IMG/VR virus record: IMGVR_UViG_3300020202_000066
Coordinates: 1-64,000 of that record
Direction: 5' to 3' (one strand)
From: a virus
Length of the DNA: 64,000 nt
Part shown: positions 41,686-53,682 of the stretch, one piece after another
How positions within the stretch are numbered: position 1 is the first letter of the stretch
Layout of the letters: each line of letters starts with the position of its first letter
Notes under the pieces: generated by a model
Told to the model about the DNA's origin: nothing
What the model saw: the letters and a program-made list of their open reading frames with translations, nothing else
The model's database searches: none
Program-made: the position numbers and the translations under genes

Positions 41686-42150
41686 CTAGGGCTCGGGCGC
41701 GATCTCACTCCGGGCAGGTTCGCGCTCCGCCCCGGTCTCGGTCGAGCCGTCGGGGAACACCACGATGCAGGGAACGCCGCTTTTCCGGGCGAAATCGATC
41801 GTGTACCACGTACCGCCGCGAGCCTGGTGCGTGGACTCGCGCGGGCAGCCGATGATGAGGTCGACACTCCGCACGATCGCCCGATTCCGAGCGAAGTGAG
41901 TGGCTGGAGGGGCGACCTCATCGTTGAAGGAGAAGCAACCCTGCCATGGGTCGCCGTCGGGACCGGGCATGGAGTGGATCCGCGGGCGCGGCTGCATCTT
42001 GTCCGCGATGGCGGCTACCTCGACGTCGACGCCGCTGCACTGCCCGTGGACGAACAGTGCCGGGCGGTGCTCCTGAAGGAGGTCGAGCACGCGCTCGCGC
42101 TGCGCAGGCGTCATCCCGTAGCGGGTTCCGGTGATTCCGATTCGGGTCAT
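41686..42150 (-). CDS. SLOG/YspA-like nucleotide-binding protein
   Basis: IGITGTR..HGQCSGVD..RNRAIV..GGTWYTI. Confidence 0.75.
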   Translation of the reverse strand: MTRIGITGTRYGMTPAQRERVLDLLQEHRPALFVHGQCSGVDVEVAAIADKMQPRPRIHSMPGPDGDPWQGCFSFNDEVAPPATHFARNRAIVRSVDLIIGCPRESTHQARGGTWYTIDFARKSGVPCIVVFPDGSTETGAEREPARSEIAPEP

Positions 42151-42199
42151 CGCTGCTACCTCGCGATCTTGGTTTCGAGAGATCACGATAGCATGTCGT

Positions 42200-42409
42200 T
42201 CAGGTGGCGGTCGCTGGCCTTGGACGGCCGACGCGCTTGCACGTCACCTTGAACTTCCGGAACTCCTGGATGCTCAGCAGCTCTGGCGCGGCCGCGGAGA
42301 GGTACACGATCAGCACGTCTCCGGCGCCGACACCCACCGAGACCAGCCCACGAGTGCCGGACTTGTCCAGGCTGGCGTAGAGTTCACGTGCGGCGGTGGC
42401 GGCCGTCAT
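42200..42409 (-). CDS. hypothetical protein
   Basis: Short ORF after last tRNA; GLVSVGVG..LIVYL. Confidence 0.4.
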   Translation of the reverse strand: MTAATAARELYASLDKSGTRGLVSVGVGAGDVLIVYLSAAAPELLSIQEFRKFKVTCKRVGRPRPATAT

Positions 42410-42448
42410 AGCTCGAAGCGTACCAGCTCTGGCGGCAAGCGAACGCGA

Positions 42449-42530
42449 TGGGGCCGTGCCGAATCGAACGGCCAAGCGCGGCGGCATCTGCTCTACAGGC
42501 AGACGGTGGATCCCACTCCCCAGCAGCCCC
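42449..42530 (-). tRNA. tRNA-Tyr(GUA)
   Basis: TCTGC-CTGTAGA-GCAGA, long variable arm, GTTCGA. Confidence 0.85.
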
Positions 42531-42541
42531 GGGAACCGAAG

Positions 42542-42616
42542 TACCGCCAGCGGGATTCGAACCCGCACTGTCACGACTCTCGATCGTGTGCCTCTGCCAG
42601 GTTGGGCTACGGCGGC
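42542..42616 (-). tRNA. tRNA-Leu(GAG), short variable arm, C33
   Basis: CACGA-TCGAGAG-TCGTG. Confidence 0.8.
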
Positions 42617-42623
42617 AAGAAAG

Positions 42624-42707
42624 TACCCGGGGTGGGAGTCGAACCCACAAATGGACTCGCGTCCGCTGGGTCTGAGCCAGCTGGCTATCCCGTTCGCCTA
42701 CCCGGGC
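42624..42707 (-). tRNA. tRNA-Leu(CAG)
   Basis: GCTGG-CTCAGAC-CCAGC, long variable arm. Confidence 0.9.
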
Positions 42708-42723
42708 AAGATGAACCGCACCA

Positions 42724-42796
42724 TGCCGACCCGCGGGATCGCACCGCGTTCTCCCGCTCTTCAGGCGGGCGTGAGGACTACCTTCACCAGATCGGC
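42724..42796 (-). tRNA. tRNA-Phe(GAA)
   Basis: CCCGC-CTGAAGA-GCGGG; T-loop TGCGA. Confidence 0.85.
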
Positions 42797-42807
42797 GAGA
42801 GATCGCG

Positions 42808-42881
42808 TGCCCGCCCCGGGATTCGAACCCGGAACCTTCCGCTTTTGAGACGGATGCCTCTACCGGTTGGACCAGGCGGGC
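42808..42881 (-). tRNA. tRNA-Leu(CAA), short variable arm
   Basis: TCCGT-CTCAAAA-GCGGA. Confidence 0.85.
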
Positions 42882-42886
42882 GAGAG

Positions 42887-42957
42887 CAGGCCCTGACGGA
42901 TTCGAACCGCCACCCGACGGGTTGGAGCCGTCGATGCTGCCGTTACACCAAGGACCT
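42887..42957 (-). tRNA. tRNA-Trp(CCA)
   Basis: GACGG-CTCCAAC-CCGTC. Confidence 0.9.
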
Positions 42958-42973
42958 GAGTGGGGAGTGCAGC

Positions 42974-43049
42974 TGGCTCCGGGAGCAGGGATCGAACCTG
43001 CGGCGGACCGGTTAACAGCCGGCTGCTCTGCCAACTGAGCTATCCCGGA
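42974..43049 (-). tRNA. tRNA-Asn(GUU)
   Basis: Loop CTGTTAA; encoded CCA. Confidence 0.92.
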
Positions 43050-43055
43050 GCGAGC

Positions 43056-43127
43056 TGGTTGCGGGCCCGGGTGTCGATCCCGGCATTCCAGGCTTATGAG
43101 GCCCGGCTGATCGCCGAATCGCCCGCA
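43056..43127 (-). tRNA. tRNA-Met(CAU), initiator-like, reduced D-arm
   Basis: CGGGC-CTCATAA-GCCTG; ends CCCGCAACCA. Confidence 0.75.
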
Positions 43128-43129
43128 AC

Positions 43130-43390
43130 GAGTTAGGGCTGGGCCGTCAGGCCCCGGGATTGAGAAGGCGCAGAAGGCACCAGGCCCATGCGGGCCCGGT
43201 AAAGAGGGGGAGCCGCCACAAGTGCGGCCGTGCAGCGGGATAACGCCGAGGGACGGACGTGGTGGTCGGGAGCGCAGCACCGACCGCGGGCGCTGCCGGG
43301 CGGATCGAATGCTGTCCAGTCATCGGTGGCTCCTCGGGGCACGTCAGGCCCTCGGGGTCGACGTAGGATCCGACGGCGGCGGTGGGTGCA
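43130..43390 (-). ncRNA. unidentified structured RNA spacer (~260 nt)
   Basis: Long-range helices CCGAGGG/CCCTCGG and GACGTG/CACGTC, several hairpins, no RBS-led ORF. Confidence 0.5.
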
Positions 43391-43394
43391 ATAA

Positions 43395-43465
43395 AGGCCC
43401 CAGAGAGAATCGAACTCTCGCCACCGGGTTACAAAGCCGGCGCTCGACCTTCGAGCTATGAGGCC
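43395..43465 (-). tRNA. tRNA-Thr(UGU)
   Basis: Loop TTTGTAA with C-C mismatch at stem base. Confidence 0.8.
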
Positions 43466-43469
43466 GAAG

Positions 43470-43541
43470 AGCCCTGACGGCGGATCGAACGCCGGTCTGC
43501 TGCTTACGAAACAGCCATCCTACCAACTGGACGATCAGGGC
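43470..43541 (-). tRNA. tRNA-Thr(CGU)
   Basis: GCTGT-TTCGTAA-GCAGC. Confidence 0.9.
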
Positions 43542-43544
43542 TGA

Positions 43545-43616
43545 AGCTCTCGCCGGGGGTCGAACCCGGGTTTCGGTCTTACCAAGACCGCGTGCTACCA
43601 GCTGCACCACGGGAGC
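43545..43616 (-). tRNA. tRNA-Thr(GGU)
   Basis: CGGTC-TTGGTAA-GACCG. Confidence 0.9.
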
Positions 43617-43620
43617 GGAG

Positions 43621-43692
43621 TGCGGGTCGAGCGAGTCGAACGCTCTCATCCAGTTTGGAAGACTGGCATGCAACCACCAACATCTGGCCCGC
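43621..43692 (-). tRNA. tRNA-Gly(UCC)
   Basis: CCAGT-CTTCCAA-ACTGG. Confidence 0.88.
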
Positions 43693-43702
43693 ATGAAACT
43701 GA

Positions 43703-43775
43703 AGTGCCCGGCGGGGCTCGAACCCGCGACCTCCTCGTTGGCAACGAGGCGTTCCGCCAACCGAACTCCGAGCAC
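43703..43775 (-). tRNA. tRNA-Gly(GCC)
   Basis: CCTCG-TTGCCAA-CGAGG. Confidence 0.88.
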
Positions 43776-43779
43776 AGGA

Positions 43780-43852
43780 TGTGGCGAGAGGGAGTCGAAC
43801 CCTCGTGACCGGATTCACAGCCCGGCGCCTGTACCGCTCGGCCATCGCCACC
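43780..43852 (-). tRNA. tRNA-His(GUG)
   Basis: CCGGG-CTGTGAA-TCCGG; G-1 encoded, A73. Confidence 0.88.
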
Positions 43853-43870
43853 ACGATCAGCACTCGAACC

Positions 43871-43947
43871 TGGCGAACATGATGGGACTCGCACCCACTT
43901 TCTCCGGCGTGACGGGCCGGCGTCTCGACTGCTTCGACCTCATGTCC
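43871..43947 (-). tRNA. tRNA-Asp(GUC), C33
   Basis: CCGGC-CCGTCAC-GCCGG; T-loop TGCGA; CCA encoded. Confidence 0.82.
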
Positions 43948-43951
43948 GTAG

Positions 43952-44025
43952 TTCGCCCGGAGGGACTCGAACCCCCGAAATGGCTGGGTGTAGGCCAGCT
44001 GCCTTTGCCGCTTGGCGACGGGCGA
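43952..44025 (-). tRNA. tRNA-Val(UAC), C33
   Basis: GCTGG-CCTACAC-CCAGC. Confidence 0.82.
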
Positions 44026-44030
44026 ATGGA

Positions 44031-44101
44031 TGGAGCTCCAGGGAATCGAACCCTGATCTGCCGGGTGCAAGCCGACCGTCCTCCCGTTGAACGAGAGCCC
44101 C
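44031..44101 (-). tRNA. tRNA-Ala(UGC)
   Basis: GTCGG-CTTGCAC-CCGGC; G3-U70. Confidence 0.92.
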
Positions 44102-44140
44102 AGAAAGAGAAACCCCCGGGCCAGGTGAGTGGTCCGGGGG
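44102..44140 (-). terminator. intrinsic terminator of attenuator 1
   Basis: CCCCCGGACCA-ctcacc-TGGCCCGGGGG-TTTCTCTTTCT directly before tRNA-Ala. Confidence 0.85.
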
Positions 44141-44165
44141 CCTTGAGCGCGCTCTTCAGTTCGCG

Positions 44166-44243
44166 CTACAGGGCGGACCACCCGCCGGCATCGACGCCGG
44201 CCGCGTGTGCGGTCGTCCCTGTGTGCACAGTGAAGAGCAGCAT
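44166..44243 (-). CDS. leader peptide 1 MLLFTVHTGTTAHAAGVDAGGWSAL
   Basis: ATAGGAG-N6-ATG; 25 codons; followed by terminator; not in ORF track. Confidence 0.8.
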   Translation of the reverse strand: MLLFTVHTGTTAHAAGVDAGGWSAL

Positions 44244-44282
44244 GGTCGTCTCCTATCACGGTCGTGGCTATCGCGGTGCAAG

Positions 44283-44354
44283 TCCTCGCGGAGAGATTCG
44301 AACTCCCAGCCGTCTGGTTCGAAGCCAGCCGCTCTTCCGCTGAGCTACGCGAGG
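44283..44354 (-). tRNA. tRNA-Arg(UCG)
   Basis: Loop CTTCGAA. Confidence 0.88.
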
Positions 44355-44358
44355 ATGA

Positions 44359-44431
44359 TGTACCCGGCAAGGCTCGAACTTGCGGCCGCCCTGGTAGGAA
44401 CAGGGTGCTCCTCCGACTGAGCTACGGATGC
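44359..44431 (-). tRNA. tRNA-Arg(CCU)
   Basis: CCCTG-TTCCTAC-CAGGG. Confidence 0.85.
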
Positions 44432-44450
44432 AGGAGCCACACACGGGAAC

Positions 44451-44528
44451 TGGTCTGCGCGGAGGGACTCGAACCCCCGGTCTCCTGCTCCCAAGGCAGG
44501 CGCTTTCGCCAGGCTAAGCTACGCGCAG
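44451..44528 (-). tRNA. tRNA-Pro(UGG)
   Basis: CCTGC-CTTGGGA-GCAGG; CCA encoded. Confidence 0.9.
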
Positions 44529-44531
44529 AGA

Positions 44532-44602
44532 TGCACCCACGTGGAATCGAACCACGGGCTCGGTCTTCGGAGGACCGCATCCTTCCTCTGGACGATGGGT
44601 GC
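44532..44602 (-). tRNA. tRNA-Arg(CCG)
   Basis: CGGTC-CTCCGAA-GACCG. Confidence 0.88.
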
Positions 44603-44606
44603 TGCT

Positions 44607-44677
44607 TGGTGCCTCTGTCGGGAGTCGAACCCGATGGGCAGCCTTCGCAGGGCTGCCTCCAATCCCCTGGCAGAAGC
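44607..44677 (-). tRNA. tRNA-Arg(GCG), reduced D-arm
   Basis: CAGCC-CTGCGAA-GGCTG; CCA encoded. Confidence 0.75.
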
Positions 44678-44684
44678 ACGGAAG

Positions 44685-44756
44685 TAGGCCGTCGTGGTGC
44701 TGCCCCACGCTCCTCCGACTTATAAGGTCGGCGCTCTGCTGATGAGCTAACGGCCC
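44685..44756 (-). tRNA. tRNA-Ile(UAU)
   Basis: CCGAC-CTTATAA-GTCGG; atypical T-loop GGCAGCA. Confidence 0.8.
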
Positions 44757-44759
44757 AGA

Positions 44760-44900
44760 TGGCCGGGAAGCGTGGAGCTATATACGCCGTCGGGGAGACG
44801 GCACCGGGGGTGGGCAGAATGGTCGCCTCGGGGCGAAGCTGGTGAGTGCGATGTGGGCGACCATGGTCCAGCGTAGCGCGCACGCGCGGTGGCTGGTGCA
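44760..44900 (-). ncRNA. unidentified structured spacer (~140 nt)
   Basis: 9-bp helix ATGGTCGCC/GGCGACCAT and hairpin GCCGTC/GACGGC. Confidence 0.35.
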
Positions 44901-44905
44901 GATGA

Positions 44906-44992
44906 CGGAGAGCCAGAGACTCGAACTCTGACGCGGTGAACCGCCCGCCGGGTAGCAACCGGGGCCCGATACCAGTTACGGGATAGCTCTCC
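44906..44992 (-). tRNA. tRNA-Ser(GCU)
   Basis: Loop TTGCTAC, long variable arm, G73. Confidence 0.88.
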
Positions 44993-45000
44993 AGGAACAG

Positions 45001-45081
45001 AGGAGGGCGGAGGTGTCGATCCCCGAGCCCGAAGGCCCCACCGTTTTCAAGACGGCTTGCCGCGCCGGCGGCGCGCCCTCC
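45001..45081 (-). tRNA. tRNA-Ser(UGA)
   Basis: GCCGT-CTTGAAA-ACGGT, long variable arm. Confidence 0.82.
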
Positions 45082-45095
45082 AGGAACAACACCAG

Positions 45096-45165
45096 AACGC
45101 TGGCCGGGAATCGAACCCGGGCCGGTACCTTTGCAGGGCACCTCCGCGCCACGCGAATCCAGCGC
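45096..45165 (-). tRNA. tRNA-Cys(GCA)
   Basis: GTGCC-CTGCAAA-GGTAC; U73; reduced D-arm. Confidence 0.8.
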
Positions 45166-45205
45166 AAAGAGAAAGCCCCCGGCGGTCCTGTGACTGCCGG
45201 GGGCT
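45166..45205 (-). terminator. intrinsic terminator of attenuator 2
   Basis: AGCCCCCGGCAGTC-acag-GACCGCCGGGGGCT-TTCTCTTT directly before tRNA-Cys. Confidence 0.88.
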
Positions 45206-45223
45206 CTCGATCCTGCGTCGTCG

Positions 45224-45292
45224 TCAGGGCGTCGAGACTCCCGGCCAGCCGGCGCCGCGGGAACTCGACGAACAGGTGACGATGCGGATCAT
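45224..45292 (-). CDS. leader peptide 2 MIRIVTCSSSSRGAGWPGVSTP
   Basis: ATAGGAG-N6-ATG; 22 codons; followed by terminator; not in ORF track. Confidence 0.8.
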   Translation of the reverse strand: MIRIVTCSSSSRGAGWPGVSTP

Positions 45293-45368
45293 GGTCTGCT
45301 CCTATCCGCGTCGGGACGCGGTGGGTGCACGCTCGGGCGATCGAAGGAGGTTCACGGGGGGGAAGAGG

Positions 45369-45671
45369 CTAGACGCCGACGGAGACGACCTTTCCCAGGA
45401 TCGCGGTCCGCTTGACCCAACCGTTGATGCGGCCGATGTTGTTCCCGATGAGAGCTCGGTCTCCCTGCAGCTGCTTGACCAGATGCAAGAGGAATCCTCC
45501 ACGCCAGCGGACGAACACCGCGTCTCCGACCGCTACGGCCATGGGATCGACCGGCGCGATGGTCACGAGCTCGCCGCTCTCGATCCGGCCGCGCATCGAC
45601 CCCCCGAGCGGACGAACCTTCGCGACTCGACCAGCAGAGATCTCCCGCAGCGCATCCGATGCCCAGCCCAT
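45369..45671 (-). CDS. small S24/S26 peptidase-fold protein inside the tRNA array
   Basis: GGSMRGRIESG..GDAVFV..HLV..IGNN.GRINGW; GGAGGAG RBS. Confidence 0.75.
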   Translation of the reverse strand: MGWASDALREISAGRVAKVRPLGGSMRGRIESGELVTIAPVDPMAVAVGDAVFVRWRGGFLLHLVKQLQGDRALIGNNIGRINGWVKRTAILGKVVSVGV

Positions 45672-45760
45672 CGCCTGACTCCTCCGGCGACCTTCGTGCG
45701 GCCGCCACCGATGCCGGGCGAGTAGGTCGCGCGCTGCGATTCGGGTGCGCGGATCTCGAG

Positions 45761-45846
45761 AGGACCGGAAGGGGATCGAACCCTTCGTGCGCCTCGCGGC
45801 GCGACGGCTTAAAAGGCCGCTGCCGACACCAGTCGGCCACCGGTCC
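45761..45846 (-). tRNA. tRNA with Lys(UUU) anticodon and long variable arm
   Basis: GCGGC-CTTTTAA-GCCGT then GCGCC-GCGA-GGCGC arm; GGACCGG/CCGGTCC acceptor. Confidence 0.85.
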
Positions 45847-45848
45847 GA

Positions 45849-45919
45849 TACCCCCGCCAGGAATTGCACCTGGGTCTCCACGTCATCAGCGTGGCATCCT
45901 GCTGTTGAACGACGGGGAT
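45849..45919 (-). tRNA. tRNA-Ile(GAU)
   Basis: CCACG-CTGATGA-CGTGG; T-loop TGCAA. Confidence 0.82.
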
Positions 45920-45924
45920 GCGGA

Positions 45925-45996
45925 TGAACCCGCCGGGATTCGCACCCGGATGCCCGGATTAAGAGTCCGGTCCGTTGCTGTTACGGTCACGGGTCC
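45925..45996 (-). tRNA. tRNA-Lys(CUU)
   Basis: CCGGA-CTCTTAA-TCCGG; T-loop TGCGA. Confidence 0.85.
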
Positions 45997-46008
45997 AGAG
46001 GAGGGGAG

Positions 46009-46081
46009 CAGCTCCTGATCGTGTCGAGCGATCACCTTCCGGGTCAAAGCCGGACGTGCAGAGCCGCTACACCAAGCAGCC
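46009..46081 (-). tRNA. tRNA-Gln(UUG)
   Basis: TCCGG-CTTTGAC-CCGGA; acceptor mismatch; T-loop CTCGACA. Confidence 0.72.
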
Positions 46082-46090
46082 GGGGGAGAG

Positions 46091-46161
46091 CAGCCGCCCA
46101 GGGAATCGAACCCCGACCCTCTCGGTCAGAACGAGGTGTGCTGCCACTACACCCGGCGGCT
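46091..46161 (-). tRNA. tRNA-Gln(CUG)
   Basis: Loop TTCTGAC. Confidence 0.87.
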
Positions 46162-46164
46162 TCG

Positions 46165-46355
46165 GAATTGATCCAGCTGGTTGACGGTGGGGCGGTGAAG
46201 CGAGAGCAGCGCCTCACTCTTACCCGCCGAGCGCCCTCGGCAGACCCCTCCGCCGACCAGCTACGCCTGGCGTTGCTGGATGGGTTTGGCCCGTCCGGGC
46301 CCGGGAATGCCGGCACCCGCGACGGGCCGACGCTTGAGCAGGAAGGAGCGGAGGA
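46165..46355 (-). ncRNA. unidentified structured spacer (~190 nt)
   Basis: 13-bp closing helix 46250-46262/46175-46187 enclosing two hairpins, plus an upstream long hairpin. Confidence 0.45.
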
Positions 46356-46356
46356 G

Positions 46357-46429
46357 TAGCCCGCCAGGGACTCGAACCCTGCTTTCCTGGCTGAGAACCA
46401 GGTGTCCTGGCCGGATAGACGAGCGGGCC
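46357..46429 (-). tRNA. tRNA-Glu(CUC)
   Basis: CCTGG-TTCTCAG-CCAGG. Confidence 0.9.
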
Positions 46430-46435
46430 ATGAGA

Positions 46436-46507
46436 TAGCCCGCCGGAGACTCGAACTCCGCTTCCCCGTTTGAAGGACGGGGGACTTCACCCATAGTCGA
46501 GCGGGCC
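46436..46507 (-). tRNA. tRNA-Glu(UUC), C33
   Basis: CCCGT-CCTTCAA-ACGGG. Confidence 0.85.
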
Positions 46508-46633
46508 GCGAGGAACGCGAGAAGGGCCCCGAGGGGCCGGCGTTCGAGCGGACCGGTGAGCGAGGGTGAGGAGTGCATGCGCCGGCATAGCGCTGCCCGG
46601 CCGGCGCGGGTGCATGTCGAGGACGACTGCGAG

Positions 46634-46900
46634 CTACTGGCCCGTCGACGTCGGATGCGGAGGCGGGTTGGTTTCGAGGTGCTCGAGCAGCGCGCGTACT
46701 GCGCAATCCTTCGACTCGATCAGCTTCCTGAGCGCCACGGTGCGCTCCGCGCTGCCGGGGAGCATCTGGACGAGCTGGTGAGCTAGCACGCAGTACGGCT
46801 CGCTGGCCTTCTGCAAGAAGAACGGCAGGTGCGCGAAGCGGAAGAACTTCAGCAGGGGCTCGGGGGGCGGTGCCGCGGGGACTTCGGTCGTGTCGGTCAT
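46634..46900 (-). CDS. conserved phage helical-hairpin protein
   Basis: FFRFAHLP..ERTVALRKLIESKDCAVRA; GAGGAG RBS. Confidence 0.75.
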   Translation of the reverse strand: MTDTTEVPAAPPPEPLLKFFRFAHLPFFLQKASEPYCVLAHQLVQMLPGSAERTVALRKLIESKDCAVRALLEHLETNPPPHPTSTGQ

Positions 46901-47056
46901 AGGCAGACTCTCCTCGTGGTCGGAGCCAGAATGACTTGGGCGTCGGTGTGAGCCGCTGGAAGCTCCCCGGCGTCAGGGCCCCGCGTGCGATGGAACCGGG
47001 TCTTGTCCCCACGGGCCTGTGCTTCGGCCAACCTCGACCGTCAGCAGCTCGGGCGA

Positions 47057-47085
47057 ACCGTAGGCGCGCCGGGGCGCGGGCGCAA
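47057..47085 (-). promoter_or_regulatory. sigma70-like promoter upstream of the tRNA operon
   Basis: TTGCGC-N17-TACGGT, same style as the 37.6 and 38.4 kb promoters. Confidence 0.6.
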
Positions 47086-47241
47086 GCACTGTCAGCCGGG
47101 GATAGCGAGGGCCACCAGGCTGACGACCGCGACCGACTCCAGGATCGCGACGAAGTCGAACAGCAGGATGGCTCGCTCCGTCGGCTCGAACGACCTTCCG
47201 TCGAGCCAACGGGCGATCAGGTACGTCACGGATACCTCCCT

Positions 47242-47415
47242 TCAGCGCGGCAGCACGACCTCCGTCGGCGTGTGTCCGTTCACCAGGTAGTAGATCAGCC
47301 CGTGCCAGCCGTAGCAGTGAACGATCCACGCGAGGATCGGGATCCCGATGAGGATGAAGAGGATGAGCACGGCGGCTTCATCGGATGATTCGCCGCGTCG
47401 GTTGAGGCGGGTCAC
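47242..47415 (-). CDS. small membrane protein
   Basis: GTG coupled to upstream stop; one TM. Confidence 0.45.
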   Translation of the reverse strand: MTRLNRRGESSDEAAVLILFILIGIPILAWIVHCYGWHGLIYYLVNGHTPTEVVLPR

Positions 47416-47687
47416 TTCGCATCGTCTCCCACACCGGTGAACTTCACCGAGCAGCGGAGGTGCTTGCCGGGCGTGCTGGCCCACCAGTCGTAGAGCCACG
47501 CGACGAGGGCGAACGGGGTCACGAGGAGGGCGCACACGCCGGCGACCAGCAGAGGTCCGCCGATCAGAAGGATGACCAAGAGCCACGGGAAGGCCAGCGG
47601 CGTGCAGCCGAGCGCAGCAACCCACCCCGGCCAGATCTGAAAGCCCCATCCGATCAGGGACACGATCGCGAGCGCATATGGCATCAC
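47412..47687 (-). CDS. membrane protein
   Basis: Very hydrophobic; GAGGAGG RBS. Confidence 0.55.
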   Translation of the reverse strand: MMPYALAIVSLIGWGFQIWPGWVAALGCTPLAFPWLLVILLIGGPLLVAGVCALLVTPFALVAWLYDWWASTPGKHLRCSVKFTGVGDDAK

Positions 47688-47895
47688 GTGCCTCCTCAGC
47701 AGCTACTCGTCCCCGGCCTGCGGCCAGTTGGGCAACAAGGCACTGGCCAGTGCAGTGGTTTCACCGTAGCCGAGGTACGGCCCAGCGGGGGACGGTCAGT
47801 CTCGGCGGAGGGGACCGCGACCAACTCCTTAAGGAATTGCAAATTCAGCTGGGATCATGGTTCCATGTCCGCACGGGGGGGCATTGGAGGTTCGC

Positions 47896-48852
47896 ATGAC
47901 GGATCCGGGAACAACGAAAAGATCCATCTACTTCTTTCGGGTGAGGGTAGCTCCGGACACGAACGGACGAGCACAGGAGTTCAATCCGGACGAGGCTGTG
48001 CGACGCATCGCAGAACTCTCATTCGCGCGGAACATCACCGGTGCCAGCAGCGCCTACCACACTTACCAAGACGGTTCTGCGGTCGCTGTATGGCCCCTGC
48101 CGCAGACCCCGGCCCCGCGGGTTGGTTTGAAACTCGGGGGGCTGCGGAGGCAGAACCTACCTCACCTTGAGGACGGTGGAAATCTTGACGCGCTGAATCT
48201 GCAGGTCGGAAAGAACTTGGCGGAGTTGACTCACATGGTCTTCTTCAAGGAAAAGAAGCAACTAATCGTGGCTTCGGAGGCCAACTTTTTTGGTCCAAGG
48301 CCAACCAGATTTCCGTATTATCTTCAGGCGAAGTTTTCGGATATGCCCCAGATCTTCCTGGAGCTGCTCGTCAATGAACACATGGCCAAGAAGTTGAACA
48401 CGCTCGAGGATATCCGCCTGCTTCGCCTCAAGCTGCGACGGAGCAACGCCGATGTTCTGAAAGAGGCCAGCCCGAGCCTGGCTAAAGCCCTCCAAGCGGC
48501 ATGCGAAGATGCAGACGCGCCCGTGTTCGAACTCACTCTGCGCGCCGATGAGCGCTCGCGCCAGGCGCTGAACCCTTCCTTGATCGACATGGTTAAGAAC
48601 ATCATCGGCTTGGGTCTTGTCGATAGAGGTAGGGAGGAGATTGTTGTCCGAGGCTATAGCAACGAAACTTCCCGAGTGGAGGAGTTCGACCTCCTAAAGG
48701 ACCGCGCTGTGGTGAAGACTGTGGTCATGAAGGAGTCCGAGAAGTCTCGGAATGTTGACTCTGAGGACATGATCTCTAAGATGATCGAGTCCTACGAGGG
48801 AGAGAAGTCATGGCTGCTGAAGGCCCCGTCGCTCGCATCACTTCGGCAGTAG
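47896..48852 (+). CDS. DUF6731-like soluble protein (accessory cassette gene 1)
   Basis: GGAGG RBS; lower GC; AELTHMVFF..NFFGPR..FDLLKDR. Confidence 0.65.
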   Translation: MTDPGTTKRSIYFFRVRVAPDTNGRAQEFNPDEAVRRIAELSFARNITGASSAYHTYQDGSAVAVWPLPQTPAPRVGLKLGGLRRQNLPHLEDGGNLDALNLQVGKNLAELTHMVFFKEKKQLIVASEANFFGPRPTRFPYYLQAKFSDMPQIFLELLVNEHMAKKLNTLEDIRLLRLKLRRSNADVLKEASPSLAKALQAACEDADAPVFELTLRADERSRQALNPSLIDMVKNIIGLGLVDRGREEIVVRGYSNETSRVEEFDLLKDRAVVKTVVMKESEKSRNVDSEDMISKMIESYEGEKSWLLKAPSLASLRQ

Positions 48853-49361
48853 ATCTCTTCCTCCAACGCTGGTTCCTGGCGATTGATTTTTGCGTCTCTT
48901 CGGGCGCTTTCCTGATCCTGCTCGGAATCAATGCCTGCAGACCGTTCGTCTCAGTCCCGGCCGGGATGAGGTCGATGCTCTACAGCACCACCGTTTCGCT
49001 CTGTGGCTCGCTTCTTGGGTTTCTCATATCAGCTGTCTCTATCATCATTGCCTTGGCCTCGCTGCCACAGTTCCAGATTCTGAAGGACAGCGGTGCGCTG
49101 CCACAGCTGTACCAAGTCTACTTCCAGGCCATATTTTGGCTTGGCGCAGCCACCGCTTGGGCCTTTGCGGCGATGCTCATCGACACGGATGCGAGCCCGC
49201 ATCCCTGGGTTGGATGGGTGCAATTCTGGCTGTTGCTCGTGGCTGCGATCCGGACGTATCGATCGGTCCGGTATCTTCGAAAGATGACTGTGGCGGCCGC
49301 CGCAGCACCGGCCGATGCTGACCGCGCTAGAGCACCGGAGCCGGAGTCGGCCTTCGGCTAG
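48810..49361 (+). CDS. 4-TM membrane protein (accessory cassette gene 2)
   Basis: Four hydrophobic helices; SLLGFLISAVSII. Confidence 0.7.
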   Translation: MAAEGPVARITSAVDLFLQRWFLAIDFCVSSGAFLILLGINACRPFVSVPAGMRSMLYSTTVSLCGSLLGFLISAVSIIIALASLPQFQILKDSGALPQLYQVYFQAIFWLGAATAWAFAAMLIDTDASPHPWVGWVQFWLLLVAAIRTYRSVRYLRKMTVAAAAAPADADRARAPEPESAFG

Positions 49362-49804
49362 CCGATCGGTGCCCGCTTCGTAGGGCAGGAAGAGTGGTCA
49401 GCAACTCTGGTTGACCCGATGGAACATCGCCGGATCGGCCGGCAAGCGCGCTAGGAGGAGTGGACGTCGCGACGGTGGCGGGTCTCACTTCCTCCGGATC
49501 GGGATCGTGCGCCATCCGCTCTCAGGCTTCGAGTCGACCCACACGACCTCGCCCTCGACGCCGCAGCGGAGGCACTCCCAGCCATCGAGCACCAACGGCC
49601 CGGCGGTCGTCGAGTGCCGTGCGGCCTCCTTCAAGCGCTCCGCATCGCGGTGGATCCACAGGTGATCCCAGAGCCAGCACCACACGGCCGTCACCTCGCT
49701 GTTCTCACTTCGGCCCGGTGCTGAGAACACCGGGCTCGCCGTTCTCAGCGCGGCAAGTACGGGTGGAGCGTGGGGAGGCGAGGCGTTCGGCCGGCTGCGG
49801 GATG

Positions 49805-50128
49805 TCAGTCCACGAACTCCGCCGGCCGGTCATCGACCTCGACGGGCTCCCGCTCCGCCATCGCCGCGGTCCGATCGATCTTGAACCGGTCGCCGTTGCC
49901 CCATGGCGTGGCGGTCACGAGCCAGTTCCGGTGCTCGCAGCCGGCGCAGTCCAGGTACCGTCGGCCGTCGACCTCCCCGGCGGTGAAGTGGCGATCGAGC
50001 GTGGGCTCCCCGCCGCGCTTCTTCGGCACGTGGTCGACGAAGAGAGGACCGCCGCACCCGCCGCACTCGGGCGAGCCGACCAAGGTGAGCGTGGAGTCGG
50101 GGGTCAGGGTTCGCGGGAGCGCGGGCAT
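49805..50128 (-). CDS. Zn-ribbon hypothetical protein
   Basis: CGGC..CAGC; AGGAGG RBS. Confidence 0.55.
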   Translation of the reverse strand: MPALPRTLTPDSTLTLVGSPECGGCGGPLFVDHVPKKRGGEPTLDRHFTAGEVDGRRYLDCAGCEHRNWLVTATPWGNGDRFKIDRTAAMAEREPVEVDDRPAEFVD

Positions 50129-50219
50129 GGGGATCCTCCTTGGGGTTGCGGTGTAGGTGGTGCGGTACACCCGTGAGTGTAATTTGGGTGTGCGCCGCTG
50201 TCCACCATGATCGGAGGGA

Positions 50220-51167
50220 TCACCCGGACCGGAGCCCCGGCAGCCGGCACCGGGGGCAGACCTCGTACAAGCGGGCGTCTTTGCACACTGCGCAGGGCAG
50301 CTTGAGCGTGTCGCACTCCTGCCGGTACCGCAGCGCACAGGGATCGCAGAGCTCGAATTCGTCGGGCACCGAGGTCCTGAGGTCCATCGATGCGCAGGCG
50401 GCACAGAGGTGACTCGTGCATGCCTCCACCGCGAGCGCTTCCTCCGCACGGTTCGGCCGCGGCCGGGGGACCTCCCACCCCTTGCCGCACTTCTCGCAGC
50501 CGACCTGCCTGCGCTGGAAGCCGATGGAGGGTCCGTCGACGAGCTTGTGGCGGATCACGGCCGCCGCGGCGGTGGGTGGATCGTTCGGCTGCGCGGACTC
50601 CTCGACAGGGGGCAACGGATCGGTGGAGCTCCGAGGAATTTTGGGGGAGTCCTCCGCCGCGGGCGGACAGCGAGGGGGGCGACCGGCCTGGTCGAGGGGC
50701 TCGTACACGACCACCCGGACGTCGGGGAGCCCGGCGAAGGCGCGCTCGATCAGGGGGCGGACGTCGGACCAGGCGAGCCCGCCCAAGCCGCAGCCCAGTG
50801 CGGGGATGGCGATCGATGGGATGCTCCGCTCCTTCACCTCACGGACCAGCGCGGCCAGCCCGGTCTCGATGTAAGCCAGAGTGCTCTTGCCGGTCCAGCG
50901 CCGCTTCGTCGGGAAGTTGATGATGAGGGAGCGGGGCCCGAGTCGACCCAGGTCGAACACGAACAGGCGGCCCGGGTAAACGTCGCCGCGGTCGCACGCT
51001 GCGACGTAAGCCTTGAAGTTCTCTGGATACGCGGCTTTGAACTTGGCGGCGAGGCCCGCTCCCATCACGCCGAGGCAGTTCACGGGGTTGACCAAGGCCA
51101 CGACGTCGGCCCAGAGAATGTCGCCTGTGTTGAACTCGATGTGGGACGGGCTGGGCTGGATGTTCAA
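50220..51167 (-). CDS. DarG-like macrodomain with C-terminal Cys-rich region
   Basis: GDI..LVNPVNCLGVMGAGLA..IINFPTK..IPALGCGLGGLAW. Confidence 0.85.
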   Translation of the reverse strand: MNIQPSPSHIEFNTGDILWADVVALVNPVNCLGVMGAGLAAKFKAAYPENFKAYVAACDRGDVYPGRLFVFDLGRLGPRSLIINFPTKRRWTGKSTLAYIETGLAALVREVKERSIPSIAIPALGCGLGGLAWSDVRPLIERAFAGLPDVRVVVYEPLDQAGRPPRCPPAAEDSPKIPRSSTDPLPPVEESAQPNDPPTAAAAVIRHKLVDGPSIGFQRRQVGCEKCGKGWEVPRPRPNRAEEALAVEACTSHLCAACASMDLRTSVPDEFELCDPCALRYRQECDTLKLPCAVCKDARLYEVCPRCRLPGLRSG

Positions 51168-51236
51168 GCGGCACGACCTTTCGGGACGGGACTGGAGCCA
51201 GGGAGACCACCCGGCACCGTAGCCGCTCCGTGAAGT

Positions 51237-51803
51237 TCAGTCGACCTCGATCGCGGCGCGCAGCGTCACCCGCGCCCGACGCAGGGCCGACCGGTGCGCC
51301 CCCGAGTGAACTCCCGTCGCCGCGGTGATCTCCCGTTCCTGGTGGCGCTGGATCGGCCCGAGAATGACGGCGGTCCGCTGCTTCTTCGGCAGCATGTTGA
51401 TCTTCGCCACCAACCGGGAGAGCACGTCCCGTACCTCGACGGCGATCTCCGGTCCCCGCTCCGGCCGGTCCGGCGGCTGCACACCCACAGCATCCAGGCT
51501 CTCGCACGTGGTCTGCGCAAGGCGCCGGGCCTGCCGCCGGTACCGCATCGACCGGATCATCGCGGTGTTCAGCGCCACGCGGTAGAGCCAGGATGAGAAG
51601 AGGCTCCGGTGCTGGAACGAGGGGAGAGAGCGGTGGACCTGCAGCCACACGTCCTGCACGGCGTCCTCGAGCTCGAACTCAACCACGTACCGTGTGCAGG
51701 CTCGCCGGACGAGCGCGACGTGACGGCGGTACAGGGACGCGAAGGCGTCGTGGTCTCCGGCTGCGGCGAGAGCGACGGCATCGTGGTCCGGGTCGGGCGT
51801 CAC
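51237..51803 (-). CDS. ECF sigma factor
   Basis: AFASLYRRH..EDAVQDVWL..FSSWLYRVALN..LP..QR..L.RAR. Confidence 0.85.
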   Translation of the reverse strand: MTPDPDHDAVALAAAGDHDAFASLYRRHVALVRRACTRYVVEFELEDAVQDVWLQVHRSLPSFQHRSLFSSWLYRVALNTAMIRSMRYRRQARRLAQTTCESLDAVGVQPPDRPERGPEIAVEVRDVLSRLVAKINMLPKKQRTAVILGPIQRHQEREITAATGVHSGAHRSALRRARVTLRAAIEVD

Positions 51804-52117
51804 TGCTGGACCACTTCCTGAGAATTCCGGAAAATTTTGGGGAGGAGAGAGGGGGACCGATTTTGGAAAAATGGGATGTTACGAGGGGGGGCTACCGGGA
51901 CCCCCTCCGAGGCGGTAATAATTCCCCACCCTGCCGCGGTGGCCCGCGCCGCCGAGGCACGCCCGCCGGACCGAGCTGTCGGCTGCTGCCGACACCGAGC
52001 CGCGCTCGGCGCGGTCGACTCGGCTGGCCTGTCGAGGTCGAAACCTGTTGCGCACACCCCGAGAATCGGGTATGAGAATGGTACTTCTGGTTTGAAGTCG
52101 ACGAGAGGAGTGCGGCG

Positions 52118-53071
52118 ATGGAGACCCGACCTGTCCCTTCCGAGCTCGTGGTCACCCACGAGATCCCCGCCGACCGGAACCCGGCGCTGGTCTATCTGGG
52201 CAGCCTTGGGGCCGGCAGTCTCCACTCCCAGACCGGCGCGCTCGAGCAGATGGCCCGCCTCCTCAGCGGCGGACTCGTCGGCCTGCGGGAACTCAACTGG
52301 TCCGCCGTCCGATACCCGCACGTCGCGCGCCTCAGGACATTGCTGGTCGACCAAGGCAAGGCGCCCGCGACGGTGAACCGATTCCTGGCAGCCATCAAGG
52401 GAACTGCCCGGGAATCCTGGCGACTCGGGTACATCGATGCCGAAGAGCTGCGGCGTGTCGAAGACGTGAAGTCCGTGCGAGGCTCGACCCTCCCCGCAGG
52501 CCGGGCACTTTCCATCGCCGAGGTTCAGGCGCTCGGCAATGCGTGCGACCGGACCACCCCCGGCGGGGCGCGCGATGCTGCGATGATCGCAGTCCTGTTC
52601 GGCGGGGGCCTGCGCCGGCAGGAGCTGGTCTCGCTTGACCTCAGCGACTACACGCCCGTGACCGGCGAGCTCCGCATCCGCGCTGGCAAGGGGCACAAGG
52701 AGCGGCTCGTGTACGCGACCAACGGCAGCGCGACCCTCCTGGCCGCCTGGCTTGCGCATCGCGGCGGCGAGCCGGGGCCGCTGTTCGTCCCCGTGAACAA
52801 GGGCGGTCGGGTGACGATCGCTCGCTTGAACCCACAAGCGGTGTACATGATGCTGCGAGCTCGTGGCGCCGAGGCGGGCCTCGCCCCCTTCAGCCCGCAC
52901 GACCTGCGCCGGACCTTCATCGGCGAGCTGCTGGACCGTGGGGCCGACCTCGCTGCAGTGCAGCAGCTCGCCGGTCACGCGAACATCACCACGACCGCCC
53001 GGTACGACCGCCGCGGAGAGCGCGCCAAGCGCAAGGCCGCCGAGCTCCTGCACATCCCGTTCGGCCAGTAG
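52118..53071 (+). CDS. XerC/D-like tyrosine recombinase
   Basis: GLRRQE, GKGHKER, PHDLRRT, AGHANITTTARY. Confidence 0.9.
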   Translation: METRPVPSELVVTHEIPADRNPALVYLGSLGAGSLHSQTGALEQMARLLSGGLVGLRELNWSAVRYPHVARLRTLLVDQGKAPATVNRFLAAIKGTARESWRLGYIDAEELRRVEDVKSVRGSTLPAGRALSIAEVQALGNACDRTTPGGARDAAMIAVLFGGGLRRQELVSLDLSDYTPVTGELRIRAGKGHKERLVYATNGSATLLAAWLAHRGGEPGPLFVPVNKGGRVTIARLNPQAVYMMLRARGAEAGLAPFSPHDLRRTFIGELLDRGADLAAVQQLAGHANITTTARYDRRGERAKRKAAELLHIPFGQ

Positions 53072-53073
53072 CA

Positions 53074-53682
53074 TCACGCCGCCTTCGTGCCGGCAGCCGC
53101 GGCGGCCGCCTTGGCAGCTTCCTTCGCCCGGGCCGCGGCCTTGCGCGCCTGGCGCTTCTCCTCGCGGGTGAGCTTCCTCGCGCGATGCTTCGGCTTCTTC
53201 GGCCGACCGTGCGGAACAGAAGCAACGCCCCGCAGCACGCCGAGGCGCTTGGCGTTGTCCCCGAGTTCGCGGTCGATCTGCTCGTCCGTGAGCTTGTCGG
53301 GGTCCGCGTCCTGGTCCACGACCTGGATCTTGCCGGTGTCGATGCGCAGCTTGATGCGCGACTGCCGCGCCTCGCGCGCCTGCTTGATCAGCGCCGCCTG
53401 CTGGGTCGCGGTGATGGGCCGGGGCTTGCCGTCTGCGTCCTTCGCGTCGAGCTCCGCGAGGGCTCGCTCCTCCAGCGACACGAAGAACGCCTCACAGCCC
53501 GCGAGGAACTCGGCGGGCTTCTGGTTCCAGCTGTCGCGGTGCCGCGCGCGCAGGCGCTTCTTCCAGACGCGAACACTGTCGGCGTCGGCCTGGAAGTGGT
53601 CCTCGATCTGGGAGTTGCGCCAGCCGGCGAGGACCATGCGCTCGAGGTCGCGCATCTCGACGTCGGTCAGTCTGCGGGCCAC
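53074..53682 (-). CDS. HTH protein, possibly terminase small subunit
   Basis: N-term HTH, helical core, DKLTDEQI tail; GGAGG-GTG start; no terL adjacent. Confidence 0.45.
   Translation of the reverse strand: MARRLTDVEMRDLERMVLAGWRNSQIEDHFQADADSVRVWKKRLRARHRDSWNQKPAEFLAGCEAFFVSLEERALAELDAKDADGKPRPITATQQAALIKQAREARQSRIKLRIDTGKIQVVDQDADPDKLTDEQIDRELGDNAKRLGVLRGVASVPHGRPKKPKHRARKLTREEKRQARKAAARAKEAAKAAAAAAGTKAA

Follow-up and report, generated by a model that had tools for sequence, protein, structure and literature searches.

Transfer RNA (tRNA) genes in phages are usually regarded as constitutively expressed cargo. Control by a translated leader is known from the amino-acid operons, where leader-peptide attenuators have been described as trpL, hisL, leuL and pheL and, in multivalent form, for thr and ilvGMEDA. 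The pheL leader attenuator is treated in PMC3082878. For tRNA genes the closest published case comes from Anabaena PCC 7120, where a long tRNA operon, otherwise silent, is induced by translational stress (PMC8421152) and controlled by the repressor TrcR (PMC10272220); the text of PMC8421152 has 0 occurrences of “leader peptide”, “attenuat” and “terminator”, and full-text searches of the literature turned up no description of tRNA genes controlled by a leader peptide or an attenuator. Here we analyze a short element in the tRNA array of the virus record IMGVR_UViG_3300020202_000066, and show its anatomy, the match of its codons to the tRNA genes that follow and the alternative folds of its RNA. 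The window, which is the whole stretch of DNA that was analyzed, is the first 64 kb of this 89,959-bp record (about 65% G+C). On the folding models and codon tests presented below we favor, with fair but by no means firm confidence, the reading that the element is a leader-peptide transcription attenuator gating nine phage tRNA genes by the full mechanism.

The attenuators of amino-acid operons consist of a short translated open reading frame (ORF) with control codons, of regions pairing as 1:2, 2:3 and 3:4, and of an intrinsic terminator directly ahead of the genes, and their stop codon positions the finishing ribosome over region 2. The same layout is seen here: sequence and folding gave a co-directional ORF with start signals, matching codons, a terminator, a 2:3 competitor and the region 1/2 arrangement, and as in the thr and ilv leaders several amino acids would be sensed together. 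The differences lie in the targets, which are biosynthetic enzymes there but tRNA genes here, and in the control codons, which form a run of one codon there whereas here one codon is present per tRNA (9 species, 6 amino acids); furthermore, the design stands within a phage tRNA array and is repeated before each sub-block. The parts of the element are the following.

44256-44104, minus strand: candidate attenuator element, in the 179-nucleotide (nt) gap from tRNA-Arg(tcg) to tRNA-Ala(tgc)
44250-44256, minus strand: Shine-Dalgarno-like box ATAGGAG, 6 nt ahead of the ATG
44166-44243, minus strand: leader ORF with ATG at 44243-44241, 25 sense codons (MLLFTVHTGTTAHAAGVDAGGWSAL) and TAG at 44168-44166
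44209-44221, minus strand: region 1, CAGGGACGACCGC, codons 8-12, pairing with region 2 in minimum-energy folds when the ribosome is absent
44172-44183, minus strand: region 2, GGGTGGTCCGCC, codons 21-24, with either region 1 or the terminator 5' arm and loop as partner
44113-44140, minus strand: predicted terminator hairpin CCCCCGG-ACCACTCACCTGG-CCCGGGGG (regions 3 and 4), -18.8 kcal/mol
44104-44112, minus strand: tail TTTCTCTTT, a 9-mer present twice in the genome, here and in a paralogous module
43395-44102, minus strand: sub-block C1, the putatively gated genes Ala(tgc), Val(tac), Asp(gtc), His(gtg), Gly(gcc), Gly(tcc), Thr(ggt), Thr(cgt) and Thr(tgt)

The leader codons listed in a preliminary description of this DNA are an exact minus-strand reading (ATG, 25 codons, TAG), and it was also correct in stating that the four Thr codons occur once each, that CTG and CTC are both present and that Arg, Pro and Glu are absent. 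Between the leader TAG and the terminator hairpin there are 25 nt, and the hairpin is followed by the UUUCUCUUU tail, which ends 2 nt before tRNA-Ala, so that there is no room for a promoter behind it. The spacers within sub-block C1 measure only 1-22 nt. Compared with shuffled sequences the whole element folds with z = -2.99, and 1 of 200 shuffles was as good. No Rfam family matches the gap at E values up to 1, a simple promoter scan gave 0 sites, and a simple terminator scan listed neither this hairpin nor that of the paralogue, this one being missed because its loop is longer than 8 nt.

For quantification of the codon match, a tRNA was counted as covered when the leader contains one of its own codons, where G34 reads C and U, C34 reads G, U34 reads A, plus G when the array has no C34 partner, UAU reads AUA and CAU reads AUG. 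The leader has an own codon for 9 of the 9 tRNAs of sub-block C1 (p = 0.00056 in 50,000 random stop-free windows of the same length), and an unbiased pipeline taking the best of three frames gave p = 0.0016 for the same gap. As the preliminary description had claimed, 24 of the 25 residues have a tRNA for their amino acid downstream; leaving the start Met aside, the figure is 23 of 24. The count depends on the tRNA-Asp at 43947-43874. The “block C” of that description, to which these tRNAs were assigned, holds only in part, since it really is two sub-blocks; the first (Ala to Thr) is fully covered, while 5 of the 8 tRNAs are covered in the second, which has a leader-like ORF of its own. The six amino acids of the nine directly following tRNAs account for 18 of the 24 residues (without Met). 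Random sets of 12 amino acids did as well in 525 of 125,970 cases and random sets of six in 39 of 38,760. Among 411 small ORFs of the genome (20-40 codons) a single one, the leader itself, reaches this richness in block-C amino acids, and so do 62 of 119,105 six-frame windows.

The match is not confined to this gap. ARAGORN lists 29 tRNA genes on the minus strand from 46507 to 42449, and Rfam adds four that were missed with default settings, which results in an array of 33 genes, all on the same strand, where all 20 amino acids are served and isoacceptors stand in groups. The spacers are bimodal, five gaps measuring 194, 594, 147, 179 and 267 nt and the other 27 at most 22 nt, and the gaps divide the array into six sub-blocks in this order:

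Glu Glu / Gln Gln Lys Ile Lys / Cys Ser Ser / Ile Arg Arg Pro Arg Arg / Ala Val Asp His Gly Gly Thr Thr Thr / Met Asn Trp Leu Phe Leu Leu Tyr

The coverage obtained in each gap for the sub-block behind it, with the p values from random windows and from the best-of-three-frames pipeline, was as follows.

Gap 1, Gln Gln Lys Ile Lys: 5 of 5; p = 0.0018 and 0.002
Gap 2, Cys Ser Ser: 3 of 3; p = 0.10 and 0.14
Gap 3, Ile Arg Arg Pro Arg Arg: 6 of 6; p = 0.0030 and 0.011
Gap 4 (the present leader), Ala Val Asp His Gly Gly Thr Thr Thr: 9 of 9; p = 0.00056 and 0.0016
Gap 5, Met Asn Trp Leu Phe Leu Leu Tyr: 8 of 8; p = 0.023 and 0.05

In every gap one frame on the tRNA strand covers all tRNAs of the next sub-block, in total 31 of 31, and in the random-window test none of the mismatched gap-block pairs had full coverage. 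Among the 120 possible permutations of gaps and blocks, the true assignment alone ranks first by codon coverage, and it is again the single best when scored blind over three frames by amino-acid windows of 10, 15 and 20 residues. In the best-of-three-frames pipeline the region ahead of the first sub-block gave p = 0.78, most mismatched pairs exceeded 0.1 and one gave 0.026. Four other tRNA arrays served as a negative control; their 22 gaps were taken through the same pipeline and no match was obtained (minimum p 0.046). Codons that are rare in this genome occur in the leaders, namely AUA, AAA and CAA (1.45, 3.8 and 5.9 per 1000 in crude genes). U-ending codons make up 11 of the 21 cognate NNY codons against 12-35% in crude genes, a post hoc observation which we give no weight. 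We consider it quite probable that the codon match is a selected feature. Judged by sequence, the array appears to contain five codon-matched leaders, of which the present one and one other belong to canonical modules.

To follow the competition between the folds, we folded the nascent RNA, ending where the terminator stem ends, with the A site at each codon in turn and 28 nt around it blocked; all these calculations are equilibrium folds. Without a ribosome the terminator forms with a probability of 0.95, and regions 1 and 2 are paired in the minimum-energy fold, which agrees with the sequestration of region 2 proposed in the preliminary description. With the A site at codons 6-7 the probability is 0.65; it is 0.49 at codon 11, 0.50 at codon 12, 0.13 at codon 13 and 0.09 at codon 14, and from codon 15 to the stop (15-26) it is 0.92-0.96. 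A 2:3 pairing too weak to compete with the terminator, which had been named beforehand as evidence against an attenuator, was thus not what we found, since a footprint on region 1 lowers the terminator probability to 0.09-0.13. The 10-bp pairing of GGGTGGTCCG (44183-44174) with CGGACCACTC (44136-44127) is real, one G-U pair included, and constrained folds show it to be part of a longer alternative helix. When the RNA was ended before region 4, the 2:3 helix (9 + 3 bp round an inner hairpin) was the minimum-energy fold for footprints at codons 1-16; from codon 17 onward it is lost, as the ribosome there masks region 2, and the terminator returns. An “arm paired” measure failed to tell the states apart and only minimum-energy structures were used here.

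Dinucleotide shuffles of the ORF region dipped as low in 3 of 213 cases, and 2 of the 213 terminated both in the ribosome-free state and with the ribosome at the stop codon while being relieved upon stalling. The energy of the 2:3 duplex, -23.9 kcal/mol, was matched by 11 of 1000 shuffles in a test of the duplex only. The RNA is thus predicted to be able to adopt two exclusive folds. Collectively, the computed tests (9 of 9 codons, loss of the terminator dependent on the footprint and its return from codon 17) agree with and support the attenuator reading of the preliminary description.

From these data we infer translation of the leader, termination and a response to tRNA shortage, in the following way. 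RNA polymerase would arrive either from the upstream tRNA genes or from a TGCACC-N19-TA motif at the start of the gap (see below), and a ribosome would translate the leader. As long as the nine tRNA species are plentiful and charged, the ribosome would reach codons 17-26 and cover region 2, the CCCCCGG/CCGGGGG hairpin would form and transcription would stop ahead of tRNA-Ala. A stall within codons 5-16 or so (T V H T G T T A H A A G) would instead hold region 1 in the ribosome, whereupon region 2 would pair with the terminator 5' arm and loop and polymerase would continue into the tRNA block. If there is no translation, 1:2 and 3:4 would form and transcription would likewise stop. The outcome would be a per-block feedback on tRNA supply, in which the tRNAs are probably made only when ribosomes run short of them. 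The paralogous module may act in the same way for Cys-Ser-Ser, and three more gaps contain codon-matched frames without a recognizable terminator.

The leader-like units in the other four gaps are as follows.

45166-45329, minus strand: paralogous module with TGCACC at 45329-45324, ATAGGAG at 45305-45299 and a 22-codon ORF at 45292-45224 (MIRIVTCSSSSRGAGWPGVSTP)
45204-45175, minus strand: predicted terminator of the paralogous module (-25.8 kcal/mol), with its tail at 45174-45166, followed by tRNA-Cys, Ser and Ser
44778-44900, minus strand: third leader-like unit, TGCACC at 44900-44895 and a 28-codon ORF at 44864-44778 (MVAHIALTSFAPRRPFCPPPVPSPRRRI) that ends CGA CGG CGT ATA TAG; it precedes Ile(tat), Arg(gcg), Arg(ccg), Pro(tgg), Arg(cct) and Arg(tcg) and has no AGGAG box and no U-tract terminator
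43147-43390, minus strand: fourth leader-like unit, TGCACC at 43390-43385, GAGGAG-N7-ATG and a 58-codon ORF at 43323-43147
46261-46353, minus strand: stop-terminated frame in gap 1, ending ...GRAKPIQQRQA* ahead of Gln, Gln, Lys, Ile and Lys

The combination of ATAGGAG-N6-ATG, a C5GG...CCG5 hairpin and the 9-mer TTTCTCTTT occurs at exactly two sites in the 90-kb genome. An alignment of the copies matches their 5' flanks, start regions and terminator tails, while the ORFs (25 versus 22 codons) and the stems differ; the paralogue has the same parts but differs in regions 2 and 3. In the fold of either copy the ORF lies within a single long hairpin, and the terminator hairpin comes next (z = -4.62 for the paralogue). 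The terminator probability in the paralogue has its minimum, 0.78, at the Cys codon, and 1 of 124 shuffles was as good. When the RNA ends ahead of region 4, footprints at codons 5-12 (V T C S S S S R) give a minimum-energy fold with a 2:3 helix of 6 + 7 bp. Each module has an AGGAG box complementary to its own UUUCUCUUU tail (44250-44256 with 44104-44112 and 45299-45305 with 45166-45174), and box and tail are paired in the minimum-energy folds as well as in the RNAalifold structure of the two-sequence alignment; such a pairing could shut off re-initiation on the finished leader RNA. Should the weak Arg(gcg) gene turn out to be spurious, the coverage of the third leader would be 5 of 5. The fourth unit, ahead of Met, Asn, Trp, Leu, Phe, Leu, Leu and Tyr, has no terminator, and the frame in gap 1 is the tail of a 105-codon frame running from an ATG at 46578 through both tRNA-Glu genes.

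A promoter-like motif is associated with most of these units.

44275-44280, minus strand: TGCACC box, the first half of TGCACC-N19-TA, whose TA is at 44255-44254

A TA at N19 spacing is found at 5 of the 49 TGCACC sites in the 89,959-bp genome. One of these five stands at the head of the array (46614), and the others open four of its five gaps (45329, 44900, 44280 and 43390); each is on the tRNA strand (binomial p = 5e-4). Four of the five motifs have an ATG 7-8 nt past the TA hexamer. It appears as if TGCACC-N19-TA may be an array-specific promoter, and if it is, each sub-block would be a promoter-leader-tRNA unit of its own.

Several findings weigh against an attenuator. Frame 1 of the same gap likewise covers 9 of 9 tRNAs, and therefore the local base composition contributes to the match. 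In the antiterminator four C of the terminator arm remain without a partner, and termination would not be relieved by a ribosome stalled within codons 17-21, where the single Asp codon lies. A terminator is present in only two of the five gaps; the other three either fold no more stably than shuffled sequences or are without a U-tract (z = -1.2, -0.4 and -2.6), and the matched frame of gap 1 has no ATG, GTG or TTG inside the gap. In the paralogue the terminator stays at 0.78 or above throughout at equilibrium, the 2:3 duplex was no better than shuffles in the duplex-only test (92 and 393 of 1000), several frames reach the 3 of 3 coverage, which taken alone has p = 0.10-0.14, and its richness in block-B amino acids is matched by 60 of 411 small ORFs. 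A close relative was found neither in the phage collection nor in IMG/VR, five distant arrays sharing a protein gene with this one lack the module of Shine-Dalgarno box, small ORF and terminator, and there is no RNA run among the sequencing runs listed with the phage. Finally, the TA half of the promoter-like motif overlaps the ATAGGAG box, and transcripts started at the motif, if it is a promoter, would therefore be nearly leaderless; in that case either the leader is translated from nearly leaderless RNA or the AGGAG box serves transcripts that come from upstream.

Some of these points would be accounted for by a plain structural spacer, i.e. a leaky terminator or a processing or stability hairpin that partitions the array, with the ORF and its composition as by-products of base composition. 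The coverage by frame 1, the many alternative pairings available in GC-rich RNA together with the non-significant duplex test of the paralogue, the lack of close relatives that could show conservation and the hairpin-filled spacers without ORFs in other phage arrays all go in that direction, but we regard it as unlikely, since the codons match the next block in five of five gaps with the true pairing as the best of 120 permutations, the control arrays gave nothing, a stall-dependent switch arose in only 2 of 213 and 1 of 124 shuffles, and the Shine-Dalgarno box and ATG are kept in both paralogues despite differing ORF sequences. Somewhat less probable still is a self-contained mini-gene with TGCACC-N19-TA as its promoter, a functional micropeptide and its own terminator, where the tRNAs are made by passive readthrough or upstream transcription. 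Small proteins are numerous in phages, and the motif stands at the head of the array and in four of five gaps with an ATG 7-8 nt past the TA hexamer at four of five sites, yet the paralogous peptides share only a few residues while each fits the tRNAs behind it, only 2 nt separate the terminator from the tRNA, with no room for a promoter, and the stall-dependent alternative fold is left unexplained.

The leaders might also be translated and sense decoding with an output other than intrinsic termination, such as Rho-dependent termination, processing of pre-tRNA by RNases or transcript stability. This would serve the three gaps whose codon-matched frames lack a U-tract hairpin, and would agree with a paralogue terminator too stable for displacement at equilibrium; the two best modules nevertheless have the canonical hairpin and U-tract with a 2:3 alternative better than chance, and we give such an output about the same low probability as the mini-gene. 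Least probable is a T-box-like sensor made of RNA only, in which region 2 (GGGUGGUCCGC) would bind the 3' end of an uncharged tRNA and so stabilize the antiterminator. Region 2 is the 5' strand of the antiterminator and resembles the T-box motif by eye, but no T-box is among the 43 Rfam matches listed at E values up to 1 over 42000-47200, a Stem I or specifier architecture is lacking in the approximately 140 nt, the motif is not kept in the paralogue, and a single specifier cannot explain codons for nine tRNAs in one frame. The translated attenuator acting through the intrinsic terminator is thus the reading that we prefer.

The virus carrying the array is a tailed phage. Its genome encodes a tape-measure protein, major tail and head proteins, a portal and a large terminase, besides a DnaB-like helicase, a second helicase and DNA methyltransferases. 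A stretch of about 30 nt is identical near the start (window position 116) and at the very end (genome position 89929) of the record, which fits a terminal overlap of a complete, circularly assembled genome. The four tRNA genes that Rfam adds to the ARAGORN list are these.

43874-43947, minus strand: tRNA-Asp(gtc), Rfam 44.7 bits, missed by ARAGORN, anticodon read by eye
44685-44756, minus strand: tRNA-Ile(tat), Rfam, anticodon read by eye
44610-44684, minus strand: tRNA-Arg(gcg), only 21.5 bits in Rfam and below the gathering score, confirmed by relaxed ARAGORN
45922-45997, minus strand: tRNA-Lys(ctt), Rfam, confirmed by relaxed ARAGORN

The tRNA-Lys(ttt) at 45760-45846 (minus strand) is 87 nt long and has the Rfam model of tRNA-Sec as its best match (51.3 bits), which suggests a long variable arm, unusual for a tRNA-Lys. 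A gene for a 101-amino-acid protein lies inside the array (45369-45672, minus strand) and has 151 homologues at E values of at most 0.001; Pfam gives only hints below the cut-off (Peptidase_S24 and TOBE_2, E about 0.008). As its closest homologues (64-74% identity) sit in Gemmataceae genomes, a planctomycete is suggested as the host. We take the gene to encode a tRNA-linked protein without assigned function that offers a hint to the host.

Relatives of the locus were sought in several collections. The phage collection contains no similar DNA, its helicase relatives being at most 57% identical. Two motif scans of IMG/VR gave 199 loci, only one of which has at least three tRNAs, and the matches are therefore taken as chance. 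The 101-amino-acid protein found one distant locus in IMG/VR, which is without the module; the 88-amino-acid upstream protein and the large terminase found no relatives there. An alignment of the 101-amino-acid protein led once more to the same distant locus in IMG/VR. In metagenome and genome contigs it gave 160 loci, among them five with the protein within tRNA arrays, which are the distant arrays mentioned above. At six loci in Gemmataceae genomes and related metagenome contigs the gene stands directly behind tRNA-Ser and tRNA-Arg (cct/tct), with nothing module-like behind it in the Gemmataceae genomes, and a DNA search of three such genomes gave only chance matches within coding regions. 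The phage itself is contained in three soil metagenome runs. Contigs of two of them are identical to the window, both possibly being its source, and the third has low-depth pieces of a variant strain. In this strain the leader, seen on one contig at depth 2.7, has a single difference at 44205 that changes CAC to CAT, both His codons; a contig of the same run over tRNA-Thr, Gly and His (43547-43826) has eight differences and one gap.

When the element is held against other systems that report on tRNA, T-box riboswitches (Rfam RF00230) are likewise terminator/antiterminator switches reporting the tRNA pool, but they recognize a single uncharged tRNA by direct binding, work without translation and regulate synthetase and amino-acid genes. 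The lambda bar minigenes deplete tRNA by peptidyl-tRNA drop-off and have no link to a terminator or to tRNA genes. They resemble the leaders in being tiny phage ORFs whose translation touches a specific tRNA pool, and one leader here ends in the rare AUA codon. The Anabaena operon is also an extra tRNA array that is kept off and turned on when translation is impaired; it differs in having a protein repressor, in being cellular and not of a phage, and in being without codon-matched leaders for each block.

The tRNA region of Caulobacter phage phiCbK (NC_019405.1, 47.7-52.6 kb) comes closer. It contains TTGACA-N17-TAGGGT, a 32-codon ORF (MSKTYRQFVRQIQVVRNIRAGRSRMADEGFRD) at 51341 and an annotated rho-independent terminator at 51465-51502, followed by Phe, Val, Ile, Ile, Val, Gln and Gln, of which 7 of 7 are covered by the ORF (p = 0.004 against phiCbK's own sequence). 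Promoter-like box, short ORF, terminator and codon-matched tRNA block thus follow one another as they do here, whereas there is no sequence similarity to the present element, host and phage family differ, and the phiCbK record annotates the terminator only, leaving the ORF and a regulatory role unannotated. From its sequence the same design appears to be present in this cultured phage. Elsewhere in the region (46500-53500) annotated rho-independent terminators stand directly ahead of tRNA blocks, with short ORFs ahead of the terminators; a 20-codon ORF with Glu and Asp codons precedes Glu-Asp, and the 45-amino-acid gp335, rich in S, A, T, L, P and K, precedes a Pro-Pro...Lys-Lys-Leu-Leu-Leu-Ala-Ser-Ser run.

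Taken further, the array might consist of five or six independent sensing units, each with its own TGCACC-N19-TA and one test codon per tRNA, where rare or wobble-read codons are preferred (AUA, AAA, CAA, UGU, AGU, AAU, UAU and UUU). Such units would measure and replace the tRNA species lost during infection, where the loss could be due to host anticodon nucleases or degradation of host tRNA, and together would make up a homeostat of decoding capacity, a regulatory class not in print that would also exist in cultured phages such as phiCbK. We offer this wider view tentatively and hold it to be somewhat less likely than its opposite. If short leaders do gate tRNA genes through the codons that these tRNAs decode, phages monitor the decoding capacity of the infected cell and top up only the scarce tRNA species, which bears on how they handle tRNA-cleaving defenses and codon-usage mismatch, and on why the tRNAs of an array are grouped as they are. 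Since phiCbK, with the same design, grows on Caulobacter, the idea can be tested at the bench now. Compared with the trp-type leaders from which we started, such gating would extend attenuation to a new target class, that of RNA genes which feed back directly on the sensor.

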